Source: a virus. Taken from it: 64,000 nt of DNA. The first letter of the stretch is position 1. Each line of letters opens with the position of its first letter. The stretch covers positions 20,417-84,416 of the IMG/VR virus record IMGVR_UViG_3300044993_000080; one strand, written 5' to 3'. Both the position numbers and the translations under genes were made by a program. The notes under the pieces are model-generated. The model was given only the letters and a program-made list of their open reading frames with translations, searched no databases and was not told where the DNA came from. Shown here in pieces: positions 3,983 to 61,428 of the stretch.

Positions 3983-5500
3983 TTACATATCAAGCTGCAC
4001 CCGCCTCTTGGCTCCCATGGTGCTTGTTGCAACGGGTTGCAAAACCCCACTCTCCGTGAACTGCAACTCGTTGGGCGGCAAATCCGCAAACAACTGGGTC
4101 AGGGTGTTGACGTGGTGATTATGCCCACTCCGCTTCGCATCCTTGCCAACGCTGGAGTAGTTGGACCCGCAAAGTATCACCCCGCCCGGTGCGTTGCGCA
4201 AGAGCACCGGGAAATTCTTGGTGCATACAGGAAAGTCGGGGCGACCATCCCACACGATCTTCGAGCGCAGATACTTGCGGCGGTGCATGGCGTGCTGAAG
4301 CGCGCTGGCGAAGTAGGTGTTAGACTGAATAGCGTGGGTGACGCGTGGGTCCATGCCGCGCTGTGGTGATAGGGGCGCGCTCTGGGTGCATTCGGCATCA
4401 GAGACAGCAACAGGAAGGATAAAAGCGACTTTGCACGTCTCAGCGATCCGCGTCCGCCACATGACGTGCTCGATGAATAGGAACCGATGGTAGCCGTTGC
4501 TGCGGTGGATCAGCACGTGATCGCCGCTATTCAGCACATCCTCGGCTCGCCGTCCGTAGCGCCCGTCCGGGAATGTGCGAAATGCCAGCAACCGCCCGGC
4601 GCACCCACTGACCTGTCTGTTGTCATATGCGTGCTCGACCGGGAACGGGGTGTTGTTGCGGTCTTCGAGCACGAGCCGCCGTTTGCTGTATCGGTGCTCT
4701 GCGCCCTTATCGCCCTTTACGTGACCCTGTGTCGCAGCCAGTGCGGCGCGGGCGGTGTTGACGGCTGACGCCCGTAAGTTGTTGTCCAGTTTTTCCTTGT
4801 GCAGTTCGCGGTTCGAATTGGCACACCATTTCTCGTATATATCCGAGATTACACACGTGAACCGACTATTGACCTGCATGTGGGTGTAGCCGACCTCGCG
4901 CGGCTCCAGCCACGGGTAGCGGGTGTCGTAAATGAGCGCCACCCAGTCGATATACCATAGAAGCTGGCCGTCCACTTCAACATCGCAGTCTTTAGGGTTG
5001 GAAATGTCAAAGTGGGCGACTAGGAAATCATAGGTTCGTATGTTTGTCCCGCCGATACATTGCGCCGCCGTCAATAGCTCGTCGTGACTGATTTCGGTAT
5101 AGACCACGGTGTCTTCGCCGCTGTCGTTCGGGATAGTGGAGAGCACCCGGACGATCTCTGCCTGAAGCCAATCGTCGTCTATCGAAAGCACAGGCACAAC
5201 CTGATCTTTGTGAACATCCTGCGTCATACGCCAGCCCTGAGGAATGTGCGGGAACTTGGCATCTTCGCCGGGCGCAAGATAGTAACAGATGCTGTGGCCC
5301 CAGTAGCCGTTATGGCCGCCAATGTTGTAGTGGGCTCGCCGCGCTTGCAGAACATGAACGTCGAGCACCGTGTAAGCCCCGTCGCAAACGGTCTCGTCTC
5401 CGATCCTGCTGAACTCGGGTCTGTAATGGAAGCGGCTGCTGCTCCAATCGCGTGTGTGCCGGACGTGGATGGGGTTAATACTGATACGCGCCAATTTCAA
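3983..5500 (-). CDS. Hypothetical protein, 505 aa
   Basis: Long ORF preceded by a promoter cassette and a GAGAGGAGA RBS. Confidence 0.7.
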   Translation of the reverse strand: MKLARISINPIHVRHTRDWSSSRFHYRPEFSRIGDETVCDGAYTVLDVHVLQARRAHYNIGGHNGYWGHSICYYLAPGEDAKFPHIPQGWRMTQDVHKDQVVPVLSIDDDWLQAEIVRVLSTIPNDSGEDTVVYTEISHDELLTAAQCIGGTNIRTYDFLVAHFDISNPKDCDVEVDGQLLWYIDWVALIYDTRYPWLEPREVGYTHMQVNSRFTCVISDIYEKWCANSNRELHKEKLDNNLRASAVNTARAALAATQGHVKGDKGAEHRYSKRRLVLEDRNNTPFPVEHAYDNRQVSGCAGRLLAFRTFPDGRYGRRAEDVLNSGDHVLIHRSNGYHRFLFIEHVMWRTRIAETCKVAFILPVAVSDAECTQSAPLSPQRGMDPRVTHAIQSNTYFASALQHAMHRRKYLRSKIVWDGRPDFPVCTKNFPVLLRNAPGGVILCGSNYSSVGKDAKRSGHNHHVNTLTQLFADLPPNELQFTESGVLQPVATSTMGAKRRVQLDM

Positions 5501-5550
5501 TCTCCTCTCGACACTGGCATATTGCCATAGCCTAGATTTATTGTCAAGCG
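5501..5550 (-). promoter_or_regulatory. Phage sigma70-type promoter cassette with shared leader
   Basis: TTGACA (5547-5542), 17 bp, CAATAT, then GTCGAGAGGAGA leader/RBS. Confidence 0.75.
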
Positions 5551-5553
5551 CAA

Positions 5554-6225
5554 TCAGTCGAGATTGATCTGGCGAGTGCTAGGCCTGACAGGCAAACGCC
5601 TTGCCGAGATATACCCTTGCTGCGTATTATTCATGGTCTCTGACCATGTTTTGCAGTTAGTGCCCCCCGCGCTGTCCATTAACCGGTTGACTACATCCGG
5701 CGTCTCCCGTGCGATGCGCAACAACACAGGGTCGTCTATCCTGCTTCCTACTTCGCCTGTCATGGCCCTGACCAGTCGAGAGAGCCCTGCGTGCTCTGAT
5801 GTGTGAACATAAATGAACTGGTCCGCCGCCGTGATAGCGAAAAAATGATTGTAGCCCTCCGTGTCTCGGAAGGTGTTCTCATTCCACTGCCCCACATGCG
5901 GTTGCGGCAACGCGCTCCACGATCTCTGGTGTTCCACGGACAACCAGATGACCGGCACGTCGGTGTCGATCATGTCCTGATCCGTAGGCTCTCGGTCGCT
6001 GACGACGATGACCTGCTTCGCGTCCTCAAACGCCAAGGGCATAGTATGCCGCCAATTCTCGCCCGCCACGTTGCGGTCCCGCAAGTCTTTCAACTCGGCT
6101 TCCTGCTGACCGCACTTCATCAAGAGCGCACGATACTTCCCCAGAATGCCTACCCCGGAATAAACCGTCATACCCGTGGCGATAACGAGACCCATCACTA
6201 ACCACGCGCTGACATCACCCATCAC
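5554..6225 (-). CDS. Hypothetical membrane-anchored protein
   Basis: N-terminal hydrophobic helix followed by a short coiled coil; start overlaps the upstream stop. Confidence 0.65.
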   Translation of the reverse strand: MMGDVSAWLVMGLVIATGMTVYSGVGILGKYRALLMKCGQQEAELKDLRDRNVAGENWRHTMPLAFEDAKQVIVVSDREPTDQDMIDTDVPVIWLSVEHQRSWSALPQPHVGQWNENTFRDTEGYNHFFAITAADQFIYVHTSEHAGLSRLVRAMTGEVGSRIDDPVLLRIARETPDVVNRLMDSAGGTNCKTWSETMNNTQQGYISARRLPVRPSTRQINLD

Positions 6226-6575
6226 TGCCGCTCCTTCGTCGCAAACTTCCCTCTGCCTGCATTAAACGGATAGTCTAGCGGGTGCTTGCTCTTGCCGGTT
6301 TTCGGGTCTCGCTCGTGCATCCACCTACGGAAATGAGCGTCGAACATGTAGCAGGGCAGTTGCGCGTTCGGAAACTTGGTCTGGTTCGGGTGTGGCACCT
6401 GCAACGTCACAACTGGCCATCCGAGCTTGCGAAGCTCGCTGCACCGAGCGTTGATGGCAAAACAGTTGTATTCGATGATGCTGCTAATCGGAGTGATCTT
6501 GTCGCCGGACAGCAAACCCATCAAAACACGCCACTGCTGGGTGCCCTCTTCGGGTAGTGGATTAGGGCGGGTCAC
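6222..6575 (-). CDS. Helix-turn-helix DNA-binding protein
   Basis: INARCSELRKLGWPV motif of small phage wHTH proteins; GTG start overlaps the upstream TGA. Confidence 0.65.
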   Translation of the reverse strand: MTRPNPLPEEGTQQWRVLMGLLSGDKITPISSIIEYNCFAINARCSELRKLGWPVVTLQVPHPNQTKFPNAQLPCYMFDAHFRRWMHERDPKTGKSKHPLDYPFNAGRGKFATKERQ

Positions 6576-6802
6576 AGGGGATACTCCAACCGCTTGAGGT
6601 AAGCCGCCGCATCGAGATGGGGACGACGAGTGCGCAACCAATGCACCCAATAGACGTCAATAGGCAACGGGGAGCGGTGAGGCCGGGGCGGCACGGGGCC
6701 GCGACTGCCGGATGCAAAAGGGAACGCCTTGCAGAAGGCGTCGAACGCATCGAGCACTTCGCAAGAGCTAGGAAGGCCAGCGGGAACAAAAGGTGCAGAC
6801 AT
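6572..6802 (-). CDS. Small hypothetical protein
   Basis: ATG follows a GTCGAGAGGAGA leader and a promoter (-35 at 6855-6850). Confidence 0.6.
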   Translation of the reverse strand: MSAPFVPAGLPSSCEVLDAFDAFCKAFPFASGSRGPVPPRPHRSPLPIDVYWVHWLRTRRPHLDAAAYLKRLEYPL

Positions 6803-6862
6803 ATCAAATCTCCTCTCGACCCTTACGGCCTAGCATAGCTGAGATTTGATGTCAACCCATGT

Positions 6863-6901
6863 AAAAAACGGCCCTGTCTCGCAGGGGGAGACAGGGCCGT
6901 T
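6863..6901 (-). terminator. Intrinsic terminator
   Basis: Perfect stem ACGGCCCTGTCTC/GAGACAGGGCCGT followed by a U6 tract on the minus strand. Confidence 0.85.
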
Positions 6902-6976
6902 CGTTTCGGCTAGTGGAAGGCGACACGAAACCTTGTCGAGAGGGAAACGTGCCTTTCTCAACACTCGCCTACTTAA
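6863..6976 (-). ncRNA. Predicted ~115-nt small RNA with an anti-leader loop
   Basis: Promoter TTGACA (7011-7006), 17 bp, TAACTT (6988-6983); no ORF; hairpin with loop UUUCCCUCUCGACAAGGUUU; ends in an intrinsic terminator. Confidence 0.6.
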
Positions 6977-7040
6977 GTCCCCAAGTTAGACTGGCAAACC
7001 CTGAATGTCAAGCGGGCTATGATGCAACCCGTTGCACGCT

Positions 7041-7349
7041 TTAAGCGTTGAGACGCTCCGCGATCCACGCGGCGGTCGATCCCCGGACATCCAAGTCGCC
7101 ATCCAACACCACGCAAATGCTGCGCCCTTGACTGTCGAAAACGTTGGGGCCGTCGCTGTGATAAGGCCCCCGCCCACGCTTGCGCCCCCCGGATTGTGAG
7201 GCCTCGACTGCACTGGTGTCCGGGGTCTCTTCCTCGGTTTCAAGTGCTGATGACGGCTCGGCGGCCACCACGCCCGTGGGACCTTCGATAGCTGCGGTGT
7301 CCGGGCGAGTGACGCGGGTGCGCGGGCTCGGGGTCTTGGTCTCGCTCAT
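7041..7349 (-). CDS. Hypothetical protein
   Basis: Strong AAGGAGGA RBS; N-terminal PSPRTRVTRP peptide. Confidence 0.65.
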   Translation of the reverse strand: MSETKTPSPRTRVTRPDTAAIEGPTGVVAAEPSSALETEEETPDTSAVEASQSGGRKRGRGPYHSDGPNVFDSQGRSICVVLDGDLDVRGSTAAWIAERLNA

Positions 7350-7424
7350 AATCTTCCTCCTTCGCTGTGGTGCTTGATACGCTGCCTATTAGCCGCCGTC
7401 CAGATTGATCGTCCGTGGGCGTTC

Positions 7425-7682
7425 TCACTGGCGGACAAGGGGGTCGCTTGCGAGCGCCGCTCTACCCGCTGCGGTGACGCTGTATGTCACTAGATTGTGC
7501 TTCACTTCATGACGGGACACGAAACCTCGTTCCCTCAATGATCGTAGTGCAGGAGCAACCCTGCTGGAAGCCTTGGCGCGCTCATGACCCAGAGCCAACC
7601 CCAGCAGGGTTGGTGTAAAACCGTCGCCGATTTGTTTTGCTGCCCGAAGTGCAGCTAATTCAGATTTCTTCAGCCTATCCAT
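7425..7682 (-). CDS. Winged-helix DNA-binding protein
   Basis: ALRSLRERGFV...YSVTAAGRAAL wing signature; GGAGGAG RBS; palindrome at 7725-7738 upstream. Confidence 0.7.
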   Translation of the reverse strand: MDRLKKSELAALRAAKQIGDGFTPTLLGLALGHERAKASSRVAPALRSLRERGFVSRHEVKHNLVTYSVTAAGRAALASDPLVRQ

Positions 7683-7742
7683 TTGCTCCTCCGTGGTCCG
7701 CCTATACTCATTGGTTGTGCGGGTTGCAACGAGTTGCAGCCG

Positions 7743-8429
7743 TCATAACATAACGCCCCCTTTGTCCGCGACATATAGCTTGGGTGACTGGATGCGCTGT
7801 TTACCCGCGCCTTCCAACGCGCTACGGATAAGCGCGATCCCTTCGTTTTCGTTCATTATCTCGCCGTGCCGCCAAACCTCGTAATCTACCCAGCGCTTGA
7901 TGTGCACTCGCCCGGTGTCATCGAGCCGGTAGTCGCTAACTGGGTATAGTTTGCGGTCCACCGCACGCGGCCACGTGATCGAATAACTATAGGACCGCGC
8001 CTGCACGAATACGACTGGCCGATCCGGCATGACGGTGTGGTCCACCGCAATGTCGAAGGGCACACCGTTCTTAGTGGCCGGTAGCCCGTCCAGCCGCTTC
8101 GTGTATTTCGGTGCGGCGAGGTAAGGGCAGACCTTGAGCGCGTAGCTGGAGCACTCGTGGTGCATAGGGCTGTCGATGTAGCAGCCGTGAGGGTGGAAAG
8201 CCGATAGCGGCCCTCCTACCCACCATAGGTCGCCGATCTCCAGCTCTCCGCCGCATATCGGGCAAAGCATTTCCTCCAACGCCTGCCACGACTTGCGATC
8301 ATCGTTGACCGTAAACAGCGGCTCCCCTGCGTTGTCACGCGCCACGTTCCATGGGATAGGGAAGCCCCGCCGATCTCTCGGCAGGTGCTCCATGCGTTCA
8401 GGGACAGGCACGTCCCACCACTTAAACAT
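7743..8429 (-). CDS. Hypothetical Cys/His (zinc-binding) protein
   Basis: CPICG and PMHHEC...CPYL motifs. Confidence 0.65.
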   Translation of the reverse strand: MFKWWDVPVPERMEHLPRDRRGFPIPWNVARDNAGEPLFTVNDDRKSWQALEEMLCPICGGELEIGDLWWVGGPLSAFHPHGCYIDSPMHHECSSYALKVCPYLAAPKYTKRLDGLPATKNGVPFDIAVDHTVMPDRPVVFVQARSYSYSITWPRAVDRKLYPVSDYRLDDTGRVHIKRWVDYEVWRHGEIMNENEGIALIRSALEGAGKQRIQSPKLYVADKGGVML

Positions 8430-9462
8430 GGCAATCGACCGCAACAAGGATCGTGTCCGGGTCCATGGCTTCGAGCCGGGCCATGATTTCGCGGTGCCAG
8501 TGCTTATTCTCACCGGCAACTACGGCGAACATCAGCATCTGGCCCTTCTCGTGCCAGCCGTCCTTATCGACCAAAGCAAAGGGCAGGACGGTCGTGGCGG
8601 CCTTGCGGAATACCACGTCATCACGCGGGCCGATCCAGTCGGTCACGCTGTCGAAAAAGTCAATGATCTTGCCCCCGGCCCAATGCTTTCTGTTTTTGTC
8701 GGTCGCGTCGAATGCCACGACTTCACGGGCCGCTACGATTGCGGGCTGCTGGTTGAATACCTTCCGGGCCGTGTCGTAATCAGAAGCATAGCGTTCTTTG
8801 ATAGTCTCCCACGTCTCGGGCTTGGGGTGCTGCGCCATCGCCGCGTGGATGTCGTCATAGTAACGTCCGTAACGCTCCGTGGCAGTCTCGATGCGCTGCT
8901 TGAACGGCCAATCGCCCAGCCGGATCGAGTTGCCGTCTCTGCGAAAGCCCTGAAGCGCAGCCGGGACGTTCGGGTTGTCCTCGGTGCCCTCCTCGCTGAA
9001 CATGCCGCTCCAGCGCCCGCCAATGACATACCAGTCCCACTTACGGTTCGGGTTGGTGCGGTTCACCACGCGGATGACCTCGTGCTCGCAGCCGACAACC
9101 TTGCCGTCATCGGCTGCGAGCTTGATCTGGAGCTTGGCTTTGGCCGGGCGAACTTCGATGTAGCCGTATTTGTGTTTACCGCTGATGTCCGGCGTCTCGC
9201 CTTCCATGACAAACTCCAGCCCGTAGTGGCTGCGCGCCCAGTCGGCGAAGCTCGTCACTTCCCCGCTGCGGGTCGTCGCGTATTCCCAGCTTGCGCGCGC
9301 CCCGTCGGTCTCGTCGACATCGACCACGTATTCGTTGTCTATGCCGGTGCACTCGAACTCGTGGTAAGGTGCGAGCATCGGGGCGATGGCCGCGCTCAGA
9401 TCGCCATTGGCCTCGGCCACCTTCTCTGGCGGCACCGCTACTATCACGACAAAATGCGACAT
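8422..9462 (-). CDS. Hypothetical phage protein
   Basis: NPNRKWDWYVIGGRW motif and C-terminal VDCH; AGGAG RBS. Confidence 0.7.
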   Translation of the reverse strand: MSHFVVIVAVPPEKVAEANGDLSAAIAPMLAPYHEFECTGIDNEYVVDVDETDGARASWEYATTRSGEVTSFADWARSHYGLEFVMEGETPDISGKHKYGYIEVRPAKAKLQIKLAADDGKVVGCEHEVIRVVNRTNPNRKWDWYVIGGRWSGMFSEEGTEDNPNVPAALQGFRRDGNSIRLGDWPFKQRIETATERYGRYYDDIHAAMAQHPKPETWETIKERYASDYDTARKVFNQQPAIVAAREVVAFDATDKNRKHWAGGKIIDFFDSVTDWIGPRDDVVFRKAATTVLPFALVDKDGWHEKGQMLMFAVVAGENKHWHREIMARLEAMDPDTILVAVDCHV

Positions 9463-9476
9463 TCATTCAACTCCTG

Positions 9477-10193
9477 TTATGGGTGGTGTCGGGTTTGACC
9501 CACTCCGGGTGCTTCGCCCTCTTCCATCTTGAGAGAGCCTTCATTCCAGCCTACCGGCCATCTAAAGGTGTCACTGTTGACGCCCCAGAGGTGGTATTGG
9601 TTAGCTGTATCCACCACGCGATCCTCGCATGGGTAGAGTTCGACGGCCTCGCAGTTCGGGCCTAGCAGTTCGTTCTTGATGCGCTGCATGTCCGCCCAGT
9701 GGGCGCGCAACGGCTTCTGGTCGTGGCGCTTGATTGACAGGTGCACCATCTCGATCACGCCACCTTCACCATCCATGGTGAGAGTGCGCCGGACCGCCAC
9801 GTGATACCGGGAATTGATGTAGTGCTCGTCTTCCATAGTCGTGAGGTAGATCGCGCGCATCTCTTCCATGGTCTTGCCGGACTTGGCACCTAGAATGCGA
9901 AAGCGCTCTTCCGCTCCGGCGGTGAAGAGCTGGCGCAGGTCTACGTCTGCGGGCTTGAATGGCGTCCATTCCGGGTCCGCGTCGAGCCGCCGCAGCCGCT
10001 CTCGGTAGAGGTCGTCGAGTATCCGCTCGTAATCCTGTGCCGGGCGCTGGCCAATCTCCGCGACGGCATACTTGAAGTCCTCGACCATCTCGGGGATATT
10101 CGAGTGCAGTCCGGCCACTACCGCCATAACACGGTCGATCTTTTCTTTCAGGTCTGCGTCGGTGAGCCCGCGCAAAATTTCGGGAGTAATCAC
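9477..10193 (-). CDS. Hypothetical phage protein
   Basis: HLSIKR..W.DMQRIKNEL.G...EAVELYP...HLW motif; coupled start/stop. Confidence 0.7.
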   Translation of the reverse strand: MITPEILRGLTDADLKEKIDRVMAVVAGLHSNIPEMVEDFKYAVAEIGQRPAQDYERILDDLYRERLRRLDADPEWTPFKPADVDLRQLFTAGAEERFRILGAKSGKTMEEMRAIYLTTMEDEHYINSRYHVAVRRTLTMDGEGGVIEMVHLSIKRHDQKPLRAHWADMQRIKNELLGPNCEAVELYPCEDRVVDTANQYHLWGVNSDTFRWPVGWNEGSLKMEEGEAPGVGQTRHHP

Positions 10194-10984: not shown

Positions 10985-11035
10985 AATCAACTTCCTCTCG
11001 ACTAGGCGAGACTATGGCCTAGGCAAGATTTGTTG

Positions 11036-11605
11036 TCAAGCGATTTTTCGCAGTTTGTCCTTGTAATGTATCTCGATCTGAAGGGCGCTTTCCATGTAGA
11101 ACGGCCCCACACTGGTCGTAAAGTCCATTACGATTCTGCCGCCCACGATCTGGGTGATGCACTTCTGGGTCGCGTTGAGTTCATTGAAGTGCTCGATGAT
11201 GTGCTGCTCCAGTTCGAGATAACACTCGTCATCCATGAGCGCCCATTTAAGCAAAGTGCGCAGCGTGTATTCGTAAAAGAAGGCCGGGGCGGCATAGACG
11301 GGTAAGGCCCATTTGCGATCACCTGATCGGACCTTCCCATATTCCTCGACTACGCACTTGATCGTAGGCGAAAGCTCTTTCTTGTAGCGCGGGTCCAGCA
11401 CGACCGGGACTGGTAGTCTCGGGTCAGCGTAGCCCGCCTCTCGATACATAGTCCTGCCTGCCCCAGCAGGGACCCAATGCGCGTGATCCTCTAACGGTTG
11501 CTGACGTGCGGGCGGAATGACTGAGACTGGGGCCGGACGGCTACGAGCGCGCGGCGCTAAAGTGACGGGTGGGCGTGAGCGCGGCGGAGGTGAAACAACT
11601 GTCAT
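11036..11605 (-). CDS. Hypothetical protein
   Basis: GAGGAG RBS; promoter -35 at 11657-11652; Pro/Arg-rich N-terminus. Confidence 0.65.
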   Translation of the reverse strand: MTVVSPPPRSRPPVTLAPRARSRPAPVSVIPPARQQPLEDHAHWVPAGAGRTMYREAGYADPRLPVPVVLDPRYKKELSPTIKCVVEEYGKVRSGDRKWALPVYAAPAFFYEYTLRTLLKWALMDDECYLELEQHIIEHFNELNATQKCITQIVGGRIVMDFTTSVGPFYMESALQIEIHYKDKLRKIA

Positions 11606-21767: not shown

Positions 21768-21942
21768 TTGACAATCTCCTACTCGACCATCATATGGTGG
21801 CCTAGGCGAGATTTTATGTCAAGCGGAAAAGTGCAACGCCCGTGCACCATCGCGGCAAATCATCTCGGGGCGCACGGGCCTAACTGGCTTGTGCGGCAGG
21901 AACTCGTGATCCCAATTAACCCATACCCCGTCTACGCGCCCG

Positions 21943-23204: not shown

Positions 23205-23268
23205 AGTCGCCACTCCTTCTCGATAGATCAGGTGTAGCGTAGCCGGGATTTTATGTCAAGCGGAAAGT

Positions 23269-23608
23269 GGGGCGCTTCTGTTTCCCGGTGCGCCCCGAAC
23301 CGATGTCAAGCGCAGTTAAGCGGCGAGACGAAGTGCAGTTTCCTGCGGGTTGTCGTTGGCATTTCTGCTAACTGTCCCGTCACGGTGGGCCAATCCGGGT
23401 CGCGTCTCTGTGTCCAGTCTGGCTGTCGATCCTGTTTCACCCCCGTCAAGAGCACCGCACCTACCCTCGCTTTCGCGTTTTTGCGCCCGAAGTAATCGCC
23501 CATGCACAGACTTTCCCTACCCGACGAGGTAGCAGCGACGCTCATGGTGGAGGTGGCGGGCACTGCCCCCGCGTCCAGCCGTTCCTTCGCAGGCCGTATA
23601 TCGACCAT
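23269..23608 (-). ncRNA. ssrA: Permuted two-piece tmRNA (alphaproteobacterial type), tag ANDNPQETALRLAA
   Basis: Acceptor piece ends CCCGCCACCTCCACCA at 23545; 100-nt intervening segment; coding piece starts GGGGGTGAAACAGGATCGAC at 23444; stem GGGGGTG/CACCTCC has the G3:U wobble; tag ORF 23360-23316; 3' hairpin 23269-23296. Confidence 0.93.
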
Positions 23609-23784
23609 AGACGCACAATAACCTACACCGGATTTGTAGTCAAACCCTGTTTGGCAAGTCCGTGCGCCCCCGCATACGGCGTTCGTTCCGAACCGGGTCT
23701 CGCTGATAGCCCTCGTGTGCAACGGGTTGCAGCGTGCTCGGTGTTCGGGTAAGCGTCCGGGTGTAATTCAATGGGAGCCCGGAC

Positions 23785-41715: not shown

Positions 41716-41843
41716 TTTCTCACTCCGTTTATCTGACCCTTAGGTCAACCTAGGCCCGCTCTCCTCTCGGCAACGGGCCTGCACACAATAGGCAAAACGA
41801 CATTTTATGTCAAGCGAAACTGCAACCCGTTGCAAGCGCAGGG

Positions 41844-59534: not shown

Positions 59535-59574
59535 GTCCGGCTGGCATCACTTATCGAGAGGGTGCCAGCCGGAC
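59535..59574 (-). promoter_or_regulatory. Intergenic hairpin displaying an anti-leader loop
   Basis: 12-bp perfect stem GTCCGGCTGGCA/TGCCAGCCGGAC; minus-strand loop CCCUCUCGAUAAGUGA; no U tract. Confidence 0.65.
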
Positions 59575-59612
59575 TAAGCGGTGTGAAGGGAGATCACACA
59601 CACCGCCTGTTC

Positions 59613-61316
59613 TTACTCGGCAGGGTCAGTGTCGTCCCTGCTCAGGTTGGTCGCACGTATCTGCTGGCCGTCCACGAGGTGCACGGGCTTGCGGACGCGA
59701 CGCCTTGGTTGGATACGGGCTTCAGTCGAACGAGAGGCCGGGCGGGCGTTTTGCTCCGCCCATACTCTCATAGCTTCGAATTGCTCTGCGAACGCCTCGG
59801 ATAGCGGGCGCATAGTCGAAAGCTGCTCCGCGATTAGGTTGCCGTCCACCTGCCGCCCGGTGACAAACGCCTTAATTTTGGCGTCCTTGACTGCGGCCTC
59901 GATCTCGGCGGGCACAAACCCATCGGAGCCCGCGACTGCCGCCGCAAGGTTCTCCACGGTGTCCGGGTCCACCTTGCGCTTCCGCAAGTGGATTTTGATG
60001 ACCTCTTCGCGCTCCGCATCGTCCGGCACGGTGACGCTGAACACTTCGTCCAGTCGGCCCCGGCGTAGGAACTCGGCGGGCAAGTTATTGGTGCGGTTGG
60101 CCGTGGCAACCCAGAAGATCGGCGATGAACTTTCCTGCATGTGGGTAAGGATAGCCCCCAGCACGCGCTGGCTGATACCGCTGTCTCCGCCACTGCCAAG
60201 CTGGAACGCCTTGTCCACCTCGTCGAGCATGACTACGCAAGGTGCCATGGCGTCGAGCATTTTCAGGGCTGCGCGCACACGCTCTTCCGAACTGCCGACA
60301 ATCCCGTGGAACACTCGGCTCACGTCGAACTTGATAAGGGGAAGTCCCAGCTTGGCCGCCGCTGCTTTGGCGACAAGGCTCTTGCCGGTGCCGGGCGGTC
60401 CAATCAGAGCGATGCCCTTCGGGGCCTCGATCCCAGCGTCTGCGGCCTCTTGGCCGAAGCACCCGGCCCGCTCGTCCAGCCATTCCTTGAGATTGTCGAG
60501 CCCACCGATCTCGTCCATGTTGGCGCTCGGCATGACTTCCAGCACTTCGGAGCGCTTGACTACCTCGACCTTGACCTTCAGCACTTCGCGGGCGATCTCG
60601 TCACCGGACAGATTGGGGAGCTTGGTCTTGTGGGTGACGAGCGCTCGCGCCAGCGCAGTCTCGAACTCGTGCGCCGACATACCGGACCCCGCCGCAATGA
60701 TGTGCTGGCGGTCGTCATTGGTGAGACAGGGCTTCTTGTCGCGCGGCAAGTCGCGGATTTGCTCATCGAGCATGGTGCCCAATTCGGCGAAGCTCGGCGG
60801 GTCGAAGTCGAGGATCGTCACGTCGTCCTCAAGCTCGTTCGGAAGCTGATAGCCGGGCGGTGTCAGCAGGATCAGGCGCTTGGCATCGGCTTCGACACCG
60901 TAGCTGAAGCTGCGCGCGTATTCCTTGATGGCCTGCAACATCGAAGGCTGCACGCCACCCTGCTTGATCCAGTGCTGTGGATACATATAGACGTAGAACC
61001 CGCCGCCCATGTCGGAAGCTCCGTTGTCATTCAGGCCCTCAATCTTCTGAAGCGCCATGTTTGGGTCTTTGGTGCCGTCCGGTTCTTCCTGACGACCATC
61101 TGCTTTGAAGCAGGTCCAGCCATTCAGGACGGTCCACAACCAAAGCGGCATCTTCTGCGCAAATGAGAGCGCTTTGATGCTGTCCAGTGCGCGGTAAGGC
61201 TCGCGGGTCCGGCATACGACGACGCCGACTGCTGCGTTGTGCAGCACATTGAGGTTGGCGCGAAACAGGTCCGCATTGCGGACACTTGCCTGCTCGGTAG
61301 TCATTGATGTGGTCAC
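59613..61316 (-). CDS. Ycf46-like AAA+ ATPase
   Basis: Degenerate N-terminal AAA; IGGLDNLK.W, GPPGTGKS, LDEVDK, ATAN and RRGRLDE; follows a promoter cassette (-35 at 61388-61383). Confidence 0.9.
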   Translation of the reverse strand: MTTSMTTEQASVRNADLFRANLNVLHNAAVGVVVCRTREPYRALDSIKALSFAQKMPLWLWTVLNGWTCFKADGRQEEPDGTKDPNMALQKIEGLNDNGASDMGGGFYVYMYPQHWIKQGGVQPSMLQAIKEYARSFSYGVEADAKRLILLTPPGYQLPNELEDDVTILDFDPPSFAELGTMLDEQIRDLPRDKKPCLTNDDRQHIIAAGSGMSAHEFETALARALVTHKTKLPNLSGDEIAREVLKVKVEVVKRSEVLEVMPSANMDEIGGLDNLKEWLDERAGCFGQEAADAGIEAPKGIALIGPPGTGKSLVAKAAAAKLGLPLIKFDVSRVFHGIVGSSEERVRAALKMLDAMAPCVVMLDEVDKAFQLGSGGDSGISQRVLGAILTHMQESSSPIFWVATANRTNNLPAEFLRRGRLDEVFSVTVPDDAEREEVIKIHLRKRKVDPDTVENLAAAVAGSDGFVPAEIEAAVKDAKIKAFVTGRQVDGNLIAEQLSTMRPLSEAFAEQFEAMRVWAEQNARPASRSTEARIQPRRRVRKPVHLVDGQQIRATNLSRDDTDPAE

Positions 61317-61391
61317 GATATTCTCCCTGTAGGTGTCCCTCTCGATTAGGACAGCCCGCAACCTAGGCTAGGCTAGATTTTATGTCAAGCG

Positions 61392-61428
61392 AAAAGAGGG
61401 CCACGCCCTGTGGTAGAGCGCGGCCCTA
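61392..61428 (-). terminator. Probable terminator after the lysis cassette
   Basis: AGGGCCGCGC...GCGTGGCCCT followed by CTTTT on the minus strand. Confidence 0.6.

Follow-up and report, generated by a model that had tools for sequence, protein, structure and literature searches.

A shared 5' leader and complementary anti-leader loops in an 84-kb phage genome: a probable RNA-pairing device with a possible trans-acting member

The phage contig IMGVR_UViG_3300044993_000080 (84,416 bp, here G000) carries a short non-coding stretch on its minus strand, at positions 6863-7040 of the 64,000-nucleotide (nt) window analysed here (bases 20417-84416 of the contig), whose hairpin loop is complementary to the 5' leader common to about 15 operons of the same phage. 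This complementarity is probably a selected RNA-pairing device. Whether the anti-leader RNA can also act in trans, set free by a terminator whether it is transcribed from its own promoter or forms the 3' end of the upstream mRNA, is close to evenly balanced, a little on the doubtful side; we lean slightly towards this trans-capable reading over those in which the element acts purely in cis. The decisive evidence comes from a relative, G001, and as far as sequence comparison can tell, it shows that loop and leader have been kept complementary by selection. The original prediction for this stretch described a minus-strand unit with TTGACA, a 17-bp spacer, TAACTT, a GGCACG/CGUGUC hairpin, an exposed loop and a terminator, and every one of these elements lies where it had been placed (Table 1).

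The leader belongs to a promoter cassette that recurs across the window in 14 copies of the form TTGACA, about 30 nt, NCGARARG, joined by a variant, GTCGAGTAGGAG, near 21787. All leader positions named in the original prediction are confirmed. The motif GTCGAGAGGR has six matches in the window, five on the minus strand and one on the plus strand (6935-6944), against an expected 0.37, and none of 100 shuffles reaches six. TCGARAGGGA has eight (seven minus, one plus at 6936-6945) against an expected 0.34. In 23 of the 26 cassettes of G000 and G001 the start codon lies 14-20 nt past the T of the motif (NCGA; mostly TCGA), as it would for a Shine-Dalgarno (SD) sequence. The three exceptions are the cassette at 61345, where a true SD and a GTG follow 20-29 nt further on, the one at 41770, with its ATG 55 nt past the motif, and G001 79263, where the ATG precedes the motif. 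Because these three break the SD-start spacing, the motif appears to serve primarily as the 5' end of transcripts made from the cassettes, and the spacing from the -10 box suggests that transcription starts at or just before the G of GUCGA.

Folding of the candidate RNA (6978-6863) yields the described hairpin followed by the terminator as the minimum free energy (MFE) structure, at -49 kcal/mol (z -5.13; none of 200 shuffles equally stable), and most of this stability signal comes from the terminator. The anti-leader within the loop is predicted to be open, with an unpaired probability of 0.72 in the 116-nt RNA and 0.83 in the 181-nt 3' untranslated region (UTR), and with opening energies of 3.4 and 0.6 kcal/mol, respectively. 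The stretch is also the 178-nt 3' UTR of the operon starting at 11039, and the anti-leader sits 96-108 nt past the last stop codon; a separate gene is therefore unnecessary. The evidence on the proposed promoter is mixed. Its -35 box is perfect and has cassette-type flanks, and upstream lies a palindrome that is found in identical form 7-11 nt ahead of TTGACA in the cassettes at 41813, 40354, 34774 and 20096. Against it stand a weak -10 box (3/6, a score inside the 2-5/6 range of 15 cassette -10 boxes) and the lack of conservation in G001; the candidate promoter also has no AAAT(C/G) spacer motif of the cassettes, and TAACTT is not listed in a consensus promoter scan. An Rfam scan of the window at gathering score returned tmRNA families and no C4 antisense RNA match, while an E-value scan of 6700-7150 gave Pxr as its best match, at 24 bits against an 80-bit threshold, with nothing else near threshold.

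Strong intrinsic terminators are few in the genome (window positions 61397, 40394, 27331 and 6868), and each is immediately followed by a promoter cassette, so that a terminator and then a promoter mark the operon boundaries.

Across the whole G000 genome, a duplex scan with the loop ranks 12 of the 14 leaders within the top 26 of some 3,500 non-overlapping windows, with energies from -18 to -23.5 kcal/mol, in line with the expectation that leaders would rank high. The best-ranked leader, at -23.5 kcal/mol, is that of the 11039 operon, which forms 9 bp and then three pairs across a 1-nt bulge. The loop complement, GUCGAGAGGGAAA, equals the consensus of all leader variants and not any single leader, as would be expected of a general trans-acting partner; duplex energies in this leader-by-leader comparison cannot be set against one another where leaders differ in length. 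Genome-wide, the best duplex partner of the loop lies inside the gene for transfer-messenger RNA (tmRNA; about 23534, -24.7 kcal/mol), a match that may well be due to chance.

G001 is the one complete relative that shares the cassette. It is a 93,409-bp IMG/VR contig that has terminal repeats and a GC content of 0.50, co-linear with G000 genome-wide (portal 60.5% and structural protein 82.6% identical), and its 12 cassettes carry the leader GTCGAAAGGG in ten cases and ACGAAAGGG in two. The anti-leader of its syntenic 3' UTR, CCCUUUCGACAA, matches its own leader, GUCGAAAGGG, with a C-to-U change in the loop alongside a G-to-A change in the leader, so that the covariation foreseen in the original prediction is present in this one relative. 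The best 12-mer shared by the two UTRs is precisely the anti-leader: 11 of the 12 bases of CCCUCUCGACAA (6944-6933) are kept, and the sole mismatch is the complement of the difference between the G000 and G001 leaders. Outside this 12-mer, the two 3' UTRs cannot be meaningfully aligned.

Anti-leaders occur at three sites in G001. At site 1 (L004 5815-5915), directly after the orthologue of the 102-amino-acid (aa) gene, a 13-bp helix joins CCCUUUCGACC to the next leader, GGUCGAAAGGG, and encloses the -35 and -10 boxes of the next cassette (z -6.6; 0 of 200 shuffles). Site 2 is the anti-leader of the syntenic 3' UTR just described; it reads CCCTTTCGACAA and lies in this long 3' UTR ahead of the cassette of the orthologous winged helix-turn-helix (wHTH) gene. 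Counts in intergenic DNA agree with a non-random placement in both genomes. In G000, three intergenic 10-mers match where 0.42 would be expected, a number reached in 10 of 1000 shuffles. They amount to two independent sites, 59535-59574 and the candidate, which contributes two 10-mers that overlap. In G001, two anti-leader runs of at least 12 nt are observed against 0.006 expected (0 of 1000 shuffles), a count that omits site 2, the third site and an 11-mer, as it is masked by a spurious 52-aa open reading frame (ORF) in the crude gene call. The wHTH gene of G001 (L004 7086-7160) seems to start at an ATG that lies about 7 nt past the -10 box and precedes TCGAAAGGG by 3 nt, and a conserved N-terminal TRPNP supports this start; its mRNA may be leaderless, the "leader" motif there being coding sequence.

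A second leader and anti-leader pair brackets the AAA-ATPase gene, and this pair can be followed into more distant phages, with changes in loop and leader that compensate each other in G001, G002 and G004 (window 59535-59620 and 61314-61346; L046/L028 in G001, L039/L054 in G002, L040/L057 in G003, L038/L048 in G004). In G000 the leader AUCGAGAGGG faces the loop complement CCCUCUCGAU. In the orthologous G001 spacer, the stem of the hairpin is unrelated, and its loop, CCCUUUCGUCAAUUGU, makes up together with two 5' stem bases (UUCCCUUUCGUC) a perfect 12-nt complement of the variant AAA leader GACGAAAGGGAA. The pair of G004, a Paracoccus contig, is GUCGAACGG and CCGUUCGAC; that of G002 is UCGAAAGG and CCUUUCGA, with a second pair, GAGGGUACC and GGUACCCUC, adjoining the stop codon. 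Such a second complementarity, which joins the SD region to bases beside the stop codon, is present in both G002 and G004. The match in G003 is weak, 8 nt with half of it in the stem. G002, G003 and G004 are without the multi-copy cassette, but their AAA gene shows this arrangement all the same.

Shuffle tests of the AAA pairing in G000 to G004 reach the observed value in 3, 0, 76, 71 and 10 of 2000 cases, and in a cross-genome matrix the cognate pair is the longest or tied longest in all five rows. Among 13 AAA loci tested, nine, all outside the clade, have no 5'-3' complementarity (108-818 of 1000 shuffles match the observed value), and the remaining four are those of G001 (1 of 1000), G002 (14), G004 (15) and G003 (73). 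From the sequences, the covariation appears to be explained only by pairing, either between RNA strands or as a strict DNA inverted repeat. Since this anti-leader lies mid-operon, with neither a promoter nor a U tract, its context indicates that it acts in cis.

Another hairpin, the first after the AAA gene (59580-59609; GCGGUGUG/CACACCGC), exposes the loop UGUGAUCUCCCUU, which complements AAGGGAGAU of GAAAGGGAGAU-type leaders. The same loop complements AGGGAGA of the true SD of the AAA gene, and chance alone would be expected to yield such a 9-mer somewhere in the genome.

Put together, the favoured mechanism would run as follows. The stretch would be an anti-leader RNA that forms the structured 3' end of the operon transcribed from the 11039 cassette, and an RNA of about 115 nt would probably also be made alone from the TTGACA-17-TAACTT promoter, with both forms ending at the 6902-6863 terminator. 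The apical loop UCCCUCUCGACAA would pair with the standard 5'-terminal leader and SD (GUCGARAGGR) of the cassette mRNAs. Such pairing would mask the ribosome-binding site and lower the translation, and perhaps the mRNA stability, of the first gene in cassette operons, with negative feedback on the cassette regulon as the net effect. The discrete RNA species, the actual pairing, the action in trans and the repression are all inferred.

Table 1. Positions of the leader and anti-leader elements and their surroundings in the window
Feature	Position	Strand	Basis or remark
Stop codon of the upstream 102-aa gene	7043-7041	minus	sequence
Palindrome TGCAAC-GG-GTTGCA	7023..7036	none	sequence; the -35 box follows 11 nt downstream
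-35-like TTGACA with cassette-type flanks, cgcTTGACAt	7006..7011	minus	sequence
-10-like TAACTT after a 17-nt spacer	6983..6988	minus	3/6 to TATAAT, including A2 and T6
Hairpin GGCACG (6953-6948) / CGUGUC (6927-6922)	6922..6953	minus	MFE and centroid folds; G-U pair 6952/6923
20-nt loop UUUCCCUCUCGACAAGGUUU	6947-6928	minus	sequence and MFE fold
Anti-leader UCCCUCUCGACAA, complement of the GUCGAGAGGGA-type leader	6933..6945	minus	motif, duplex, accessibility, comparison
Intrinsic terminator: 15-bp stem (6902-6866), 7-nt loop, U6, end at 6863	6863..6902	minus	-24.6 kcal/mol
Next cassette: TTGACA 6855-6850, leader GTCGAGAGGAG 6820-6810, then ATG 6802 (76-aa gene)	6810..6855	minus	candidate cis target where RNA reads through the terminator
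Cassette and leader GTCGAGAGGAA of the operon whose 3' UTR carries the anti-leader	10992..11039	minus	possible 5'-3' partner
Second anti-leader hairpin: perfect 12-bp stem, 16-nt loop CCCUCUCGAUAAGUGA, after the AAA-ATPase gene, no U tract	59535..59574	minus	sequence, fold
Leader AUCGAGAGGG of the AAA-ATPase gene, cognate of the 59535-59574 loop	61337..61346	minus	true start of the gene GTG 61316, with its own SD

A number of observations weigh against the trans-capable reading. The terminator is shared between the putative small RNA and the upstream operon, and the 77-nt 5' hairpin domain alone has a z of only -1.12, with 23 of 200 shuffles folding equally well. The other anti-leader copies (59535-59574 and three sites in G001) lie within mRNAs or promoters and look cis-acting. 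At G001 site 2, a TTGACA stands 79 nt before the anti-leader and is followed, after 17 nt, by TCCGGT, with no TAnnnT box and no usable -10; the anti-leader there is mostly paired locally (predicted unpaired probability 0.22), and no classic terminator hairpin lies near it. The SD of the 6819 leader, a possible target, is itself mostly paired in its own mRNA (predicted unpaired probability 0.11). For the candidate region, G001 is the sole readable cassette-bearing relative, and the sequencing runs that contain the phage are DNA runs of hot-spring or microbial-mat metagenomes, with no RNA run among them. The trans-acting silencer of the original prediction therefore survives in part: its loop complements the leader consensus and is predicted to be open, and a strong terminator follows, while the shared use of this terminator and the cis context of the other copies tell against it. 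Its description of the targets as an early class does not fit, because cassettes stand ahead of the portal and virion operon as well.

An element that works in cis alone, on the RNAs that carry it, is a serious contender whose chances nevertheless fall well below even, taking its two forms together. In one form it would bracket its own 4-kb operon from 5' to 3' end in the manner of icaR and hbs. In the other it would sequester the SD of the 76-aa gene (ATG 6802) in read-through RNA, following the logic of T4 e, soc, 49 and I-TevI, and the 76-aa gene would then be translated only from its own cassette promoter. The AAA bracket speaks for such a role, being specific to its own leader and co-varying in relatives, as do the G001 site 1 hairpin, which with its enclosed -35 and -10 boxes has exactly the layout of T4 gene e (PMC3014915), and the absence of an own promoter at site 2. 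A 264-nt G000 read-through RNA also pairs the anti-leader with the 6820-6810 leader in both its MFE and centroid folds; this pairing depends on the length folded, however, and its probability drops to 0.01 or less once more downstream sequence is included. In G000 a strong terminator stands between the two arms, the loop fits its own-operon leader (9 bp plus 3) no better than it fits other leaders, and the read-through fold of site 2 leaves the downstream leader unpaired with the anti-leader. A purely cis-acting element also gives no role to the cassette-like -35 box and palindrome inside the UTR.

Explanations without RNA pairing fare less well. It is improbable that GTCGARAGGG is a protein-binding or initial-transcribed promoter element in DNA, with the inverted copy as an extra site or as the relic of an inverted partial cassette duplication and RNA complementarity as a by-product. 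This account draws on the fixed distance of the motif from the -10 box even where it is not an SD (61345; G001 79263), on the palindromic G001 arrangements CCCTTTCGACC-N16-GGTCGAAAGGG and CCTTTCGA-CAA-TCGGAAGG, and on the 59535-59574 loop, which agrees with the 14717 cassette at 15 of 16 nt, some of them upstream of where transcription likely starts, and thus points to an origin by inverted duplication. Yet four of the five anti-leader copies lie in hairpin loops whose stems differ fully between phages while the loops are kept, and minority leaders (GACGA in G001, GUCGAACGG in G004) are matched by complementary loop changes that a protein site would not need; the start-codon spacing described above is likewise that of an SD. 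Chance, meaning an ordinary 3' UTR and terminator in which 10 nt happen to complement an SD-rich motif, is less probable still. Leader complements are about as frequent genome-wide as in shuffles (k=9, 15 against 13.2; k=10, 6 against 3.3), an 11/12 12-mer in common with the G000 UTR turns up in 42 of 1000 shuffled G001 UTRs, and the 5' hairpin is not significantly stable; the first and last of these count also against the favoured reading. The 12-mer actually shared, however, is precisely the anti-leader and differs only where the leaders differ, intergenic enrichment holds in both genomes, and a second conserved pair exists in the clade. Least credible of all, to the point of being nearly negligible, is a small plus-strand gene with a GTG at 6949 after GAGAGGGAAAC and a 31-aa ORF to 7044. 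The stretch does read GTCGAGAGGGAAAC-GTG in frame with the ORF 6913..7044, but no plus-strand promoter lies between the terminator and the motif, all other genes are on the minus strand, and the inverted motif of G001 is not followed by a start codon.

The underlying RNA logic, anti-SD pairing, is already known, and a standard phage leader matched by anti-leader loops would be a new variant of it. In the icaR mRNA of Staphylococcus aureus (PMC3868564), the SD region at the 5' end is paired by a C-rich anti-SD motif located in the long 3' UTR, and Bacillus subtilis hbs (PMC5737220) pairs its 5' UTR with its 3' UTR at long range over 14 bp; the AAA bracket of G000 has a layout like these. Unlike icaR and hbs, the G000 leader is common to about 15 operons, which could put many mRNAs within reach of one 3' UTR motif; the loop matches the leader consensus and not its own leader, and the pairing is a prediction from sequence. 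In the T4 genes e, soc, 49 and I-TevI (PMC3014915), an SD-complementary arm precedes an internal promoter, and the read-through RNA is closed while the promoter-initiated RNA is open. The candidate of G000 departs from gene e in that its arm lies 90 nt before the -35 box, with a strong terminator between arm and target.

Phage and host RNAs with comparable loops provide a second set of parallels. The c4 RNA of P1 and P7 and the CI RNA of P4 (PMC12197685, PMC3632133) come from the same strand as their targets and pair through loops at or near the ribosome-binding site, as the candidate would. They control one immunity operon, and by the Rfam scan the candidate has no sequence or structure similarity to them. 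Staphylococcal RsaE and the alphaproteobacterial cuckoo/CCUCCUCCC RNAs (PMC4615179) are, like the candidate, terminated small RNAs (sRNAs) whose C/U-rich loop pairs with several SD regions. These are host RNAs that act on generic SDs, whereas the seed of the candidate extends into the phage-specific UCGA. The closest descriptive parallel to the G000 leader is the start-associated SAS motif of Cluster K mycobacteriophages (PMC3203893), a standard asymmetric motif that overlaps the SD of many genes and has one reverse copy, for which the authors leave open whether the partner is protein or RNA. Its position relative to start codons is similar. It is a 13-bp motif, GGGATAGGAGCCC, 3-7 bp before start codons, which differs from GTCGARAGGR, and its host phylum differs as well, making it an analogue and not a member of the same family. 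In contrast to the G000 leaders, SAS is not tied to promoters, and the main text of PMC3203893, as far as available, proposes no pairing role for the reverse copy. In the available portions of the open-access literature, including a 2025 phage-sRNA review, no phage with a standard leader matched by anti-leader RNA loops is described.

A broader possibility is that the phage has a genome-wide translational governor, in which one leader on about 15 operons and co-evolving anti-leader loops, one freed as a small terminated RNA and others embedded in mRNAs, would close or titrate the ribosome-binding sites of the regulon in trans and in cis. This is on the unlikely side. If true, the translation of most operons would be set by a short RNA-RNA code and not by proteins such as T4 RegA or RegB, a compact way of control that might be moved to other systems. 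Standard start-associated motifs that have a single reverse copy, as in the SAS of the unrelated Cluster K phages, would then also have an explanation open to testing. The co-varying AAA bracket would add comparative, non-experimental evidence for 5'-3' UTR pairing in phage mRNAs.

Searches for further relatives cover phage, metagenome and genome collections. The collection "phages" gave no match to G000 by megablast, blastn or tblastn, and a 505-aa protein gave none in IMG/VR. A gapped cassette pattern found two contigs in IMG/VR, G001 and a 7.8-kb fragment that stops short of the candidate region; a 17-nt cassette word used as a relative finder gave three low-GC matches, judged to be chance. 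A portal search identified closer relatives at 81%, 68% and 64-68% identity on contigs of 92-97 kb. Portal-based scans of metagenome and genome contigs returned one locus each, neither with the cassette, and further relatives, none of them bearing the cassette, came from scans using the AAA protein and the 310-aa virion structural protein. The spacer that follows the 102-aa-gene orthologue in G002 and G004 contains a terminator and no convincing anti-leader. A reverse TCGAAAGG copy in G002 at 8031 lies inside that orthologue and is taken as chance.

The palindrome TGCAAC-NN-GTTGCA, often located 7-11 nt before TTGACA, is also present at two to seven copies per locus in relatives without the TCGARAGG cassette (L005, L006, L007, L009, L036). 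Because it occurs in these cassette-less relatives, it is older than the cassette, and it is probably an operator-like site.

The window has a GC content of about 0.59, and nearly all its long ORFs are on the minus strand; it encodes a portal, a virion structural protein, a DNA polymerase, a helicase, a UvsX-like recombinase, the AAA ATPase and an alpha-type tmRNA. Contigs from four DNA runs of one sample, compared over 4000-10000, have zero variants within the candidate stretch. The alpha-type tmRNA, together with the Paracoccus contig among the relatives (G004), points to Alphaproteobacteria as the host group. The phage-encoded tmRNA gene is permuted, lies at 23225-23661 and specifies the tag ANDNPQETALRLAA.

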